Of a DNA stretch of 42,903 nucleotides, positions 27,001 to 33,000 are shown in pieces; positions within the stretch are counted from its first letter, which is position 1, and each line of letters begins with the position of its first letter. Location of the stretch: positions 86,927 through 129,829 of the IMG/VR virus record IMGVR_UViG_2681813435_000006. One strand, given 5' to 3'. Position numbers: made by a program. The DNA is from a virus (Duplodnaviria > Heunggongvirae > Uroviricota > Caudoviricetes).

Positions 27001-30000
27001 TAATTTGAACAGCTCAATAATCTGCTTTTCTTTATCTATTCTATTATTAACGAAATCACTTACTAAAGGTATCCTTACTCCATCAAGTGTGTTGTCTCTT
27101 TTTTCATTTATTAATAAGGTTGCATCTTTAAAATCAGAATCGGATTCAAAATAAGAATCTAATCTCCAATTTGTCCAACCCTTTAATCCAGTATTTTTCG
27201 TAATCGCAACTCCTTCATTTGAAGATGCAGTTATTTCATATTCCCTATCTCCTACTTTAATTTTACTTCCTGCAAAATCCAAATTGCTCCTAGCTATTAA
27301 TCTTCCATTAGCTTGTGTCGTATAGTTTTTTAAACTAATAGGTATGTGCCCATTCTTAGCTTCATATACATCATCAAAGTCGAATTCGTATACATTATTG
27401 CCAATAGAAATATTATCATTATCTTCAATGGGGGTATTATTAAATACTAATTTGGCTTGTGCAGGGTTAGCATCTGCACTTACATCTACTTTTATATTGC
27501 TTTTATCTAGCTTTTTCCAGTGATTCTCATCCCATTCTTCATCAGTATTTGTCTTAATGCATTGGTATAAAATCCCACTTTTATTAACTATTGTTCCATC
27601 TATATATTTAAATCCTTGCGTCCATTGTTTAACATTTTCATTTACAATTCCATCACCTGTATCGAATTCAAATATCTTATCACCTATCGTTACGATTTCG
27701 CTATCAAATACTGTTCCTGTAAATTTTAATATACCTTTACCACTAGAGCCATTACAAAAACTTGTAACTTCTCCACTATTACTTCTATTTGTTATTTCTA
27801 AGCTACCATCACTTATTTTTTTAATCCAAATATCTGGTTTTATATCTATATCCCCATAATTTGGTATTATTATTTCTGTTCCATCCTCATTGTTTTCACT
27901 TAAATCATACGTTTCACTCAAATATTCTCTACTATAGGCATGATAAGTATTACATCTCATAGTTATGTCTAAATATCCTTGTTCTAGCCCAAAATGTGTC
28001 ATTTCAACATCATCAACAGGCATAGCATAATAAATCTTTTCAGGGTCTTCAGAAAAATATAATGGCTGATAATTATCTTGATGTAACCATCTAGCCACTT
28101 CTCTAATTAATTCTTTATTCCATTTTTCTGTGAAACAAAATTGTAATTTAAGTTGTAATGGATTTCTTTCTATTCCTTGAAAATAAGGCTTATCAGCCTC
28201 TATAGTATTTATTTCTTTTATTTTCTTATTAGCTAAAAAATTTTCTTTTAATTCTGCATTATCTACAGAACCATTTATAATATTAAATTCTAAACTATCT
28301 CTACCTGCATAATTGAAATATAAACTGCTCTTTATCAAAAACCATCACCTCTCTTTAAAAAGAAAAGGATACAATTAAAATTGTATCCTTAATACTTTCC
28401 TCTATTTCTAAGAGTATTTATTATTTTAGTAGCAAAACCTTGAGCTTCATTTTCTGTTCCATACATTTTATCAATATGAAAATTTATTTCAATATTATTA
28501 TTGTTACTAGTTGCCATTGCGGGTTGTAGATTTCTATTCATTCCATACCCAAAATTATTTATAGGTAAGGTATTAACAAAATTATATAATTTCTTACCTT
28601 GTTCTGCGTTAAATATAGTCTCTACTGCATTAGGATTCCCATGAAGCATAGCTTTTCCTGTAAAATCTGCAACTCCACCTTTATCATAATAACCTTTAAT
28701 ATCGCTCATGGTATTTGCATAATTAGCTATCTCACTCTCAGTCTGATATCTATCTTTACCAAATAACCATCTCGCTTGACTATTATAAATTTGCTCCTTA
28801 CCATCCATAGTGCCACCAACAACAATGTCATTCGCTGTTAATTGAACATCCCTAACAGAATTAGTATCTACAAATTGATAACCTAATTTAGTTAGATATT
28901 TCTTAGCTGCTTTCAAATCATAACCAGTTCCATATACTTTTCCATATTTAGACTTAGGAACATAATTAGCTTTATTCATAGCATTTAAATCGATTAATGC
29001 TTTATTTCTTATTTGATTATATGTATCATTTCTATCATTTCCACCTAATCTAGTAACACCGTCTACCTGAACCTCCCATGACTAAAGTCACGGAGTTCTT
29101 GGTCAATAACACTAATGTGTTAAGTATCACCAAGCTATCCCCATAGTTCCTACGGTTCTTATATATATTATTTTTATTCTTATATCTTATTTACACACTT
29201 ACATACTTACTACTTTTTTATTATTAATTATTCTTAAACCTTCATTTAAAATATTAATACTAGCATTATAATCTCTATCTATTACTAAACCACATTTCTC
29301 ACAGATATATGCCCTTACTCCTAAGTCTTTAGTTTGTTGTGATTGATTGCCACAATCGCTACATAATTGACTAGATGGATAAAATCTATCTATTTGTTGA
29401 TATATTTTACCGTACCATTTTGTTTTATATTCTAATTCTCTATTAAACTCAAAGAAACTTGCATCTGCTATACTTTTAGCTAACTTATGATTTTGTAATA
29501 TTCCACTTGTATTCAAATCTTCCATGCAAATAATATCATAGTTATTAATAAAATCTGTAGTTAATTTTTGAAGAAAATCTATTCTACAATTATAAATTTT
29601 TTTATGATATTTGTTTACTTTTAATCTTTGTTTATTTCTATTATTGCTACCTTTTTTACGTTTACTAAGTTTTCTTTGAGCTTTTATTAATTTATCTTCA
29701 TATCTTCTATAATATTTAGGATTAGAAATAACTTTATTATCACTTGTAGTTGCAAACTCTTTTATTCCTAAATCTATTCCAACTACTAAACCTGTTTTCT
29801 CTTTATTTTCTTGTGGTACATCTACACAACACAAACTAATATAATATTTACCATCTGTATCTCTTGATAAAGTAGAACTAACTATTCTACCTTGATATTG
29901 TCTTGAATAAGCTATTTTTACTTGTTTTAATTTAGGTAATTTAATTTTACAATTTTGCTTCTTATATTTACCTGTAGATGTGTATTTTATTTCTTTTTCT

Positions 30001-33000
30001 AATACTTCTATATTATTATTTGTATAATTGATTTTAATAGATTGATAATTACTTTTATATGATTTAAACTTAGGAAAACCACATTCTTTCTTAAAGAATT
30101 TTAAAAATGTTTCATATTGATTTTTTAGAGTATTTTGCAATACAGATTTTTCACATTGTTTAAGCCATATATTTTTCTTTTTAAGTAGTGTTAATAATCT
30201 TGACATTTTAGCAAAATTTAATACTGATTTATGATGTTTTAATCTATGTTTATTAATATTTAAAAAATAATTCCAAACATATCTTTTAGCATTAAAACTC
30301 AATTCTATTTGATTTATTTGAGTTTTATTGGGATAAATTCTATATTTAAATCCTTTTGCTATTGTATTCTTTTCAATATTTGTAGAAGTCATTTATTAAC
30401 ACCTCATTTTAAGACTTATATTTGCTTTTCTAAATATAATATATCATATTCTAAATTTAATGTCAACATATTTTGTTTAGGTTTATAAATATTATATATT
30501 GACTTATAAAATATATATGATACAATCTAAATAAAAGGAGTGATTTAAATGATTAGTTATAAACCATTATTTAGATTATTATTAGAAAGAGATATGTCCA
30601 AAACTCAACTTCGTGAAGCAGTTGGTTTCAGCACAGCTACATTAGCAAAAATGTCTAAAAATGAATATATTTCCATGGAAACACTTGAAAATATTTGTGT
30701 GTATCTTAATTGTAACATTGAAAATGTTATTGAATTCATACCTAAATAATTTAAATAATATATATAAGAACCGTAGGTTCTTTAATCATGTTTGAGGTAT
30801 CGTTCACATAGGTTCGCTACTACCTATGCAGTTCTCTTATGAACTTCTCATACTTTCGTATGACGCACAGACTATATCTTATCCCTCATCATTACATGTT
30901 AGGGTCTACCCACTTCGGTACGCTTGTACCTACTTCCCTCAAGAGGAATAGTCGTTGAAGTTTCCTCTGTTCGAGGCTTACCTGCTGATTGCCCATTGTT
31001 TTAGTGTTTAGGATTTAACCTTGCACTATCCAATTAATTTTTTCTACTTTCGTAACTTTCACACTTAGACTTATTTCATTCTTATGTTGTAGTTTAATTA
31101 GCTTTAGGGCTTCCCAGCAATTCAAGTAGTGTTGGGTATTGTGACTAATACCACTACATACAGATTTCTCTATATGCTAACTGTTTGCCAACTAACTCAT
31201 GGCTGAAGTCACGAGTATGCGTTGGCAAGTCAATCAAAGTTTACTCCACCTTTTGCACCTTTGCCACCTACAATAATATCATTTGGATTAAAATTAATAT
31301 CTTTAGAATTTATTTTTGATGTATCTACAAATTCATATCCTAAAGGACTAAGCCATGCTATAGCATTTTTTAAATCTTGTCCTGTACCATATACAATTCC
31401 GCCAACAGGCTTAATTCTTCCACTTTGAATATCTGAATATAATTGTATGATTCCTGCCGTATCATATCTATTTTTCCCACCTAGTCTTATAGCACCATTT
31501 AAATCTTGTCTGTCAACACCATTAATAGCACCAGTATCTCCTACAACTATATCATCTTTCCCAAAATGTAATTTGTTTTTGTCTACAAGGCTTGTATCTA
31601 TATAGTTATATCCTAAAGAACCTAATATCTTTCGAGCATTGGCTAAATCCGCCCCTGTCCCATATACATTTTTAGTTTTATTTTCTTCAAGTATTTTATC
31701 AGGGTCTTTTTTATCTATTCCATTTACTAAGTCTTGTGCTGCTTTTAATTGTTCTAATAATTCCTTTTTTATTTTGTCTCCTAGTGAAGTTAACCCTTTT
31801 CCAAATAAATCCTCAAATTGTAATAGAGCATTTTTGATTCCAATTCTCTTACCATCAATCCATTCAATATAGCCTTCAGTTAGTGCTTTTCTTGCATCTA
31901 AATTTAGATAAACATTATCTAATCTTGTGTCGATATCACGTTTTTTCTTTTCTATTTCTTTTTTCTTTTCTTCTTTCTGTTTTGTTAGAGCTTCTTTCTT
32001 TAATTCATTATTGTGCTTCATCTGTAGATCAGTCTTTTTCTTCATTTCCTCTTGTAATTGTTTTTCGTACTCTAGCCTTCTAGCTATGCCTTCTTCGCTA
32101 TCATCTGTTGATAATTTGGCTATCTTTTCTTGTAATTCCGCTATAGTTTTTAACTGCTCGCTTTTCTGTTCATTATAACTATTTCGTTTTTCTGCATCAT
32201 CTATTTTCTTTAACTCAGCATCTATAGATTCCTCGAAATGTTTTAAAACTTTATCTAATTGTTCTTTCGCTAATTCAGCAGTTTTAGTTAAGACTTCTCT
32301 TAGTTTATCTTCTATAGTGGACTTCATTTCAGACATTTTGTCTTTGATATCTTCTAGCTCTTTTTTATGCTTTTCTAGTTCAGTATTAGCTTTATCTAAT
32401 TCAGCAGTATACTCTCTAACTTTATCTAACAAGAAATCTTTGCCATATTTATATGCTATATCATTAGTTTCTCGAATTAACTCAGTCATTCTTCTAATAT
32501 TTTCTTCGTCTTGTTCTACTAGTTGCTTCTTTAATATCATTATTTGCTTGATATTTTTTTCTTCATGTAAACTAAGTCTATCTAGTTCATTTGAAATCAT
32601 TTCTATATTTTCTTTATAAATCTGCTGGATGGCTTCCCATTTAGCAGTGACTAATTCTAAACTCACATCTTTGATAGTTTTAGTTACATTAAGCATTTCT
32701 GTCCCTATGTCTGAATATTTTTCGCTTAACATATGAATAGTAGTTTCATCATAAATGCCTGATTTCATTTCTTTTTCAATAAATTCTCTTTCTTTTCTTA
32801 AAGTATCTAACTTTTTAACAGTATAATCATCTATCTTAGATAAATAGTTAATATAATTAATATCATTTTTATTTTGCAAATCGACATCTGTTCTTAATTG
32901 AGTAATTGTCCTATCAATAGATTTAACTTTGTCATCAAATTCTCCTAAACGTGATTCTAATTTTTCAATATTTATTTTATTTAAATTTTCCATTAGTTCA

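Follow-up and report, generated by a model that had tools for sequence, protein, structure and literature searches.

In the tape-measure gene (TMP) of a Clostridium botulinum phage-plasmid we found a non-autonomous group A (IS605-type) IStron whose tnpB, equipped with its own internal promoter, is probably controlled by a repressor that the element itself encodes, a small helix-turn-helix (HTH) protein of the XRE family which would act in an Arc-like manner. The IStron lies in a window of 42,903 nt, positions 86,927 to 129,829 of the IMG/VR record IMGVR_UViG_2681813435_000006 (a 129.8-kb provirus record, 65% complete). Its anatomy, its recurrence, the selection on the HTH gene and the conserved palindromes linked to this gene are supported by sequence comparison; binding, repression and its timing, splicing and cleavage are predictions. 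The central features are the following:

29067..31232, minus strand: group A (IS605-type) IStron, 2166 nt, without tnpA; reading frame restored on removal, empty alleles in sister phages
30549..30749, plus strand: XRE (Cro/C1-type) HTH gene, 66 aa, HTH_26, VanU-like, predicted repressor (PF13443, E 2.3e-17; 3TYR, E 2.4e-17)
29199..30392, minus strand: tnpB, 397 aa (PF12323/PF01385/PF07282; RuvC residues D207/E291/D374 intact)
30499..30526, plus strand: HTH promoter, TTGACT at 30499 and TACAAT at 30526 (TTGACT ... TG-ATACAAT), conserved across the aligned loci
30438..30466, minus strand: tnpB promoter, TTGACA at 30466 and TATATT at 30438, spacer 17, extended -10 (TG), 11/12 matches, conserved
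30473..30492, no strand: predicted operator O1, between the two -35 boxes; second-best site in the record with a matrix from other loci
30418..30437, no strand: predicted operator O2, just downstream of the tnpB -10 and over the predicted start site; best site in the record with the same matrix

Divergent promoters and predicted operators

The HTH gene and tnpB are separated by 156 nt containing two conserved promoters, which are arranged back-to-back with 32 bp between their -35 boxes, as described in the first-pass annotation. Promoter-like sites are no more frequent in this region than by chance (16 vs. 16.3 expected), and therefore the support for both promoters comes from their conservation across 20 aligned loci. 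The HTH gene is under purifying selection (median dN/dS of 0.11 for 163 pairs, 0.04-0.17 for the listed pairs, maximum 0.23), and its copies in two C. botulinum TMP genes differ by 6 synonymous and 0 non-synonymous changes.

The same annotation had proposed that the HTH protein controls the TnpB dosage. This is made probable by the two predicted operators found at the tnpB promoter, to which the protein is expected to bind. O1 and O2 are 20-bp palindromes with the consensus ATRTTTA-N6-TAAAYAT. With an independent matrix built from ten loci, C. botulinum copies excluded, the O1+O2 pair scores 29.3, while the next pair in the whole record reaches 11.2. The spacing between the two sites is 54-56 bp in 13/14 training loci (at the exception, L109, the search chose the wrong O1) and in all five held-out elements, whose operator pairs had a score reached by none of 1000 shuffles. 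An element found later (L224) contains two perfect copies (14/14).

The same operator pair precedes stand-alone HTH orthologues without tnpB (L074, L122 and L131), while eight HTH-less tnpB genes have no strong operator pair upstream (best single site 8.3 bits vs. 14-19). Thus, the motif follows the HTH gene and not the transposon. Upstream of HTH genes with a different recognition helix the pair is weak or absent. In large gut phages (L017-L068, e.g. L023), a 54%-identical HTH with a different recognition helix is accompanied by the variant palindrome ATCTTCA-N6-TGAACAT in the O1 position.

By its location over the predicted tnpB start, O2 is in the position of a repressor site. Two other roles of the HTH protein were considered. 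First, it might merely autoregulate or act on other phage or host genes, tnpB having borrowed the divergent promoter of a captured regulator cassette. At the three stand-alone loci the HTH gene, the promoters and the palindromes indeed precede unrelated genes, which points to a portable cassette; however, O2 is kept over the predicted tnpB start across diverged elements and the genome contains no other comparable operator pair, so we consider this explanation unlikely. Second, the protein could be a rheostat or an activator at O1, similar to cI at PRM or to C-proteins, raising the transcription of tnpB or of its own gene when scarce and repressing it when abundant. O1 is located just upstream of both -35 boxes, its centre at about -50 to each predicted start, as would suit such a function. 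Nevertheless, both promoters are close enough to the consensus to work without an activator, and both VanU-G and Arc repress, so that the chances of an activator are similarly low.

Recurrence of the cassette and its relation to tnpA

Searches with the HTH sequence detected the intron-HTH-tnpB arrangement, with both element ends located, at 17 distinct sites in clostridial and gut phage or mobile contigs (L198, which is the present one, L202, L191, L192, L193, L194, L197, L208, L010-L014, L109, L118, L138 and L227). Each of the 17 elements is preceded by TTGAT and terminates with TTCAG, and the sense open reading frame (ORF) was restored in 15/15 tested cases. The search that had been proposed for further elements of this kind thus shows that the arrangement is not a one-off. 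Many of the insertions are in phage tail genes; L193 is located in a type IV secretion system (T4SS) region, and L208 comes after a gene for DNA polymerase III alpha.

The IStron contains no tnpA remnant, and no Y1 transposase was found in the incomplete record. It was suggested earlier that the HTH gene stands in place of tnpA, but this was not borne out. Autonomous IS605 elements without an intron, present at one site in L001-L009 and others and at another site in L224, have the order tnpA (forward), HTH (reverse) and tnpB (forward), and their HTH proteins are closely related to the present one (78% for L002). In addition, L106 retains a 3' remnant of tnpA beside the HTH gene. Thus, judging from these genomes, the HTH gene does not replace tnpA, which is simply missing here. 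Since the intron-less tnpA-HTH-tnpB elements end differently (TTCAC and not TTCAG), at least two IS605 lineages possess the HTH cassette. Its presence here could be due either to loss of tnpA from the IStron or to uptake of the cassette by an element already lacking tnpA.

The intron-less elements also bear on the idea that antisense transcription is the point, i.e. that transcription of the HTH gene across the inverted-repeat arm and the P9 region tunes splicing vs. omegaRNA formation. The stop codon of the HTH gene lies directly next to the 5' arm of the inverted repeat, and the first terminator-like site on the plus strand is at 30807-30828, so the transcript could reach over 30745-30800. 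However, the HTH gene has the same orientation in IS605 elements without an intron, where it faces tnpA, and the selection is on the protein. This argues against a role of the antisense orientation in splicing control, as envisaged in the first-pass annotation, and makes such an explanation very improbable.

No HTH-IStron carrying tnpA was found despite the many insertion sites, which might suggest that the HTH protein substitutes for a tnpA function and directly aids mobility. We give this hardly any credence, since the protein has 66 aa and no catalytic domain, coexists with tnpA in other elements, and spread without tnpA is usual for group A IStrons (PMC4227781). Moreover, autonomous IS605 elements exist (L186/L187) which encode TnpA and share TTGAT and the left-end hairpin with the IStron; we infer that elements of this type are candidates for its mobilisation in trans.

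Boundaries and setting of the element

The setting of the IStron in the TMP gene is given by these features:

31233..35747, minus strand: tape-measure ORF upstream of the IStron, with NlpC/P60 and SLT domains (phrog_4211; Pfam)
31233..31237, minus strand: TTGAT target and target-adjacent motif (TAM), its last U being the 5' splice-site U; found at 17/17 sites with both ends located
28389..29066, minus strand: final tape-measure exon, 225 codons (restored frame, IStron-free proteins)

On the minus strand TTGAT (31237-31233) is followed by TGACTTGCC, and the element ends with GGAGGTTCAG (29067), followed by GTAGACGGTGTTACTAG; the longer 3' exon read after this end is GTAGACGG. Joining the flanks in silico results in a single open frame, GGVNFD|VDGVTRLGG, and IStron-free TMP proteins are uninterrupted across the insertion point (GGVNFDVDGITRLGG in P0122). 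Circular C. botulinum elements (about 200 kb), for example pRSJ19_2, share the gene layout and have a 100% identical intron region; the genes are annotated there as NlpC/P60 protein, HTH, TnpB and hypothetical protein. In pNPD1_1, a related IStron (intron 93%, TnpB 87%, HTH identical) is inserted at another TTGAT of the same TMP gene. Since each of the two phages is empty at the other's site, both IStron ends are fixed. Placing the left end four bases further on (TTGAC) is incompatible with the frame and with the empty alleles, and was rejected.

Group A IStrons insert after TTGAT, ATTAT or TTTAT without target duplication, end with TCAG and carry an IS605-type tnpB, while tnpA may be intact, truncated or, as in the present case, absent. 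By all sequence characteristics the element is a group A IStron, and it is predicted to splice. The CdISt1-type layout recognised in the first reading of the sequence is confirmed by the TTGAT target, the TTCAG end, the IA2 core, the intact TnpB and the restored frame.

Two more gaps in the tape-measure gene (window positions 35747-36065 and 36688-36999, minus strand) resemble ORF-less group I introns, and in the sister phages L212 and L214 an HNH gene is located inside the first of them. In the sister phages L199 and L205 (5337-6201), the TMP gene harbours a second TnpB element close to window position 32700, which is absent here. At the end of the window (42785-42903, minus strand), Rfam detected a Fusobacteriales-1 RNA with tandem 42-nt units upstream of the ORF 42214-42888.

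Group I intron and RNA structure

The following RNA-level features were assigned, all on the minus strand except for the strandless arms of the inverted repeat:

30745..31232: group I intron 5' domain with IA2 layout (P1, P2, P3, P4, P5, P6, P7, P7.1, P7.2, P8, P9.x; pairing and covariation)
31129-31124/30911-30906: P3, covarying as CTACT/GGTAG, CTAAT/GTTAG and CAAAC/GTTTG
30953-30949/30874-30870: P7, 75/75 cells paired
31196..31215: left-end subterminal hairpin (TnpA-type) with a guide-like CATA before it; 89/90 cells paired, same in the autonomous IS605 L186/L187
30745..30777: 5' arm of a 33-nt inverted repeat which loops out the HTH gene and tnpB; 91% complementary to 29149-29181
29149..29181: 3' arm of the inverted repeat, pairing with 30745-30777
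29067..29165: predicted omegaRNA scaffold and right end, with a hairpin at 29076-29093; the last G is the intron omega-G (pairing)
29051..29066: predicted guide, formed by the beginning of the 3' exon (placed by analogy with IS605 TnpB)

Rfam did not detect a group I intron at either threshold, which is not taken as absence. The intron assignment therefore relies on BLAST matches of the 5' 490 nt to phage group I introns, one of them annotated as such, and on the P1-P9 pairing with compensatory changes. In the alignment all cells are paired also in P4 (75/75), P2 (135/135), P6a (54/54) and P9 (90/90); compensatory or double changes are present in P2, P3, P6a, P7, P7.2 and P9, and there are none in P4. 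In the window the P3 strands pair as CTACTT/GGGTAG. The last exon U forms a U-G wobble with a G in P1, and together with P3, P4, P7, P7.1, P7.2, P8 and the terminal G this constitutes an IA2 core.

The arms of the inverted repeat are paired in 271/283 cells with 24 double changes. Such a repeat enclosing the ORFs is a known IStron feature (PMC4227781), and here it is found together with IS605 subterminal hairpins, as in group A. The right-end hairpin has an alternative partner at 30790-30798 (P9.0), resembling the competition between splicing and guide formation described for CboIStron (10.1101/2023.11.20.567912). In the public RNA runs X1-X3, the related introns and right ends that were present came from other sequences, and there was no joint and no exon match; in X10 nothing was found. 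In the HTH-IStron of L207, about 535 extra nt (3284-3810) are located within the P9.1 loop. One frame of this insert is GIY-YIG-like (YIIYKITN...FYIGIT...R), so that a homing endonuclease may be nested here within a TnpB IStron; its called 115-aa part has no Pfam match.

TnpB and the modular composition of the IStron

TnpB matches NF038281 with an E value of 1.9e-122, yet its 408.9 bits are below the cut-off of 425. It has the RuvC D-E-D residues, a zinc finger with all four cysteines and a predicted right-end omegaRNA, as expected for a TnpB-omegaRNA nuclease, and is predicted to cleave DNA at the TAM TTGAT, as deduced from the insertion motif.

The TnpB of this copy groups with those of the HTH-less, intron-less IS605 elements L186/L187 (79-81%), and in a tree without L002 and L014 a single clade of HTH-IStron TnpBs was rejected (p-AU 3.8e-33). 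Further, L193 combines an HTH 97% and an intron 85% identical to the present ones with a TnpB of 45% identity. These two observations indicate that the HTH gene and its promoter were kept while tnpB was exchanged; as far as the sequences tell, the IStron parts are modular. In some copies the RuvC motifs are altered (VGIYLG in L010, ICMENL in L191), and therefore not all copies need be active nucleases. The window also encodes a second TnpB (2090-3560, plus strand; 378 aa, 28% identity to the IStron TnpB) with no transposase seen; it is accompanied by a RAGATH-18 RNA (3399-3467) and, upstream, by an IS605-like hairpin (about 2106-2130).

Proposed mechanism

In the mechanism we favour, the HTH protein, presumably as a dimer, would bind O2 over the tnpB start and block transcription, while at O1, between the -35 boxes and about five helical turns from O2, it would set its own level and might cooperate with the O2 site. 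The transcript from the internal promoter would comprise tnpB and omegaRNA without the ribozyme; it would need separate control because it could not splice. In the resident prophage-plasmid, TnpB and omegaRNA would be held low, resulting in fewer DNA breaks. Since TnpB inhibits the splicing of CboIStron, an IS607 IStron (10.1101/2023.11.20.567912), a low TnpB level in the lysogen would also protect the splicing of the tape-measure mRNA. As the HTH protein has no sensor domain, the simplest trigger would be entry into a repressor-free cell, where transient derepression of tnpB could lead to cutting of empty alleles, i.e. to homing. The lost tnpA would have to act in trans.

Several points weigh against this mechanism. 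The operator motif is rich in A and T and initially came to notice in these very alignments, and the independent matrix was built from related elements. In L106, L012 and L138 the O2 site is degenerate, and in L227 this applies to O1. No public RNA run covers the IStron locus; HTH binding, tnpB expression and splicing are predicted from sequence. TnpB was demonstrated to repress the splicing of an IS607 IStron, whereas for IS605 ones this is a hypothesis (10.1101/2023.11.20.567912). Finally, late lytic read-through from the tail operon would transcribe tnpB despite the repressor.

Empty alleles and homing

According to the first-pass annotation, TnpB would cut IStron-free TMP alleles at TTGAT plus guide. 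This target is correct for the excised donor joint, at which cleavage is predicted; present-day competition between phages at this site is not supported, the alleles found being mismatched. The IStron-free alleles have TCGAT and 1 mismatch (L212), TTGAC and 5 seed mismatches (L190) or TTGAT and 5 seed mismatches (L101, L214). An exact search of viral contigs for the empty target gave 0 matches, and a search with the L011 host gene revealed no empty allele.

Over six sites, the TAM is changed in 6/10 empty haplotypes vs. 2.9 expected from the flanking divergence (p 0.036), and the TAM or the seed in 9/10 (p 0.066), in a post hoc test that is small and not independent. The single fully susceptible empty allele is L217; at the L014 site, the guide is matched perfectly by two close alleles whose TAMs are changed in different ways. 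As a lead, this pattern would fit past homing with escape. It is tempting to speculate about a family of repressor-timed homing IStrons of large temperate phages, in which the HTH protein silences tnpB in the lysogen, protects virion-gene splicing and allows a burst on entry, with TnpB homing strong enough to enrich TAM escapes; we regard this extended scenario as possible but rather doubtful.

Self-targets with TTGAT plus more than 9/12 seed matches were not found. Sequences paralogous to the insertion site are repeated at 26324-26415 (Dit) and 31459-31505 (TMP) of the window; in the Dit repeat no self-target is predicted because, although TTGAT is present, there are 6/12 seed mismatches.

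Comparison with known systems

The element resembles the group A IStrons CdISt1/CdiIStron (Tourasse 2014, PMC4227781; Zedaveinyte, 10.1101/2023.11.20.567912) in TTGAT, TCAG, IA2 intron (81% identical to Clostridioides copies), inverted-repeat stem, subterminal hairpins, tnpB and missing tnpA. It differs from them by the antisense XRE gene with divergent promoters and predicted operators. Tourasse listed ORF A and ORF B alone, both forward (PMC4227781), and neither of the two papers contains "HTH" or "helix-turn-helix". Extra HTH genes were described as cargo of some TnpB elements by Altae-Tran (2023, PMC10691335), in the Ser-3 and DDE-6 branches and without introns, operators or a function. 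Searches of a partial body of literature, ISfinder excluded, turned up no account of an XRE/Cro repressor cassette in IS605 elements or IStrons, or of this operator. IStrons, element-encoded tnpB repressors (Arc, also in IStrons) and homing without tnpA are already published.

The HTH protein is similar to VanU-G of Enterococcus faecalis (NF000090 VanU, E 5.3e-21), an XRE repressor which binds its own promoter at imperfect inverted repeats (PMC4405338); the closest solved sequence is 3TYR (E 2.4e-17), whose PDB entry is named "transcriptional regulator" only. In contrast to VanU, it reaches 74.6 bits where the equivalog cut-off of NF000090 is 150, and it has no vancomycin context.

The closest functional parallel is Arc, a ribbon-helix-helix (RHH) repressor of IS605 elements and IStrons, which represses an analogous divergent IS605 promoter (Moon et al., 10.64898/2026.09.24.754181). 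In both systems the gene of a small regulator is divergent to tnpB, and the promoter region which the two share contains candidate sites. However, the HTH protein has no RHH match and belongs to HTH_26, and the sites described here are 20-bp palindromes 55 bp apart. Moreover, arc and tnpA are often on one strand opposite tnpB, whereas here tnpA, when present, shares the strand with tnpB and is convergent with the HTH gene. In the Dit gene of C. botulinum Su0604 plasmid L190 (11950-14000), which is uninterrupted in the window, an IS607-type IStron (GG target) carries tnpB and an antisense RHH gene (PF12651), and the promoter contains three direct repeats similar to CTACTTGCAA; the layout is as here, with an Arc-type regulator. 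That such an IStron occupies the neighbouring gene in a sister phage suggests that the two have converged on the same design.

The HTH protein would add a second repressor fold, unrelated to that of Arc, to the control of IS605 TnpB, weeks after Arc was shown in that role. It bears on the question how TnpB is kept from blocking the splicing which the host gene needs, and the predicted operator makes the repressor claim testable. The best reading of the conserved operator footprint is that the HTH protein works like Arc but is not Arc, and by its sequence distribution the cassette is a real and widespread helix-turn-helix counterpart of Arc.

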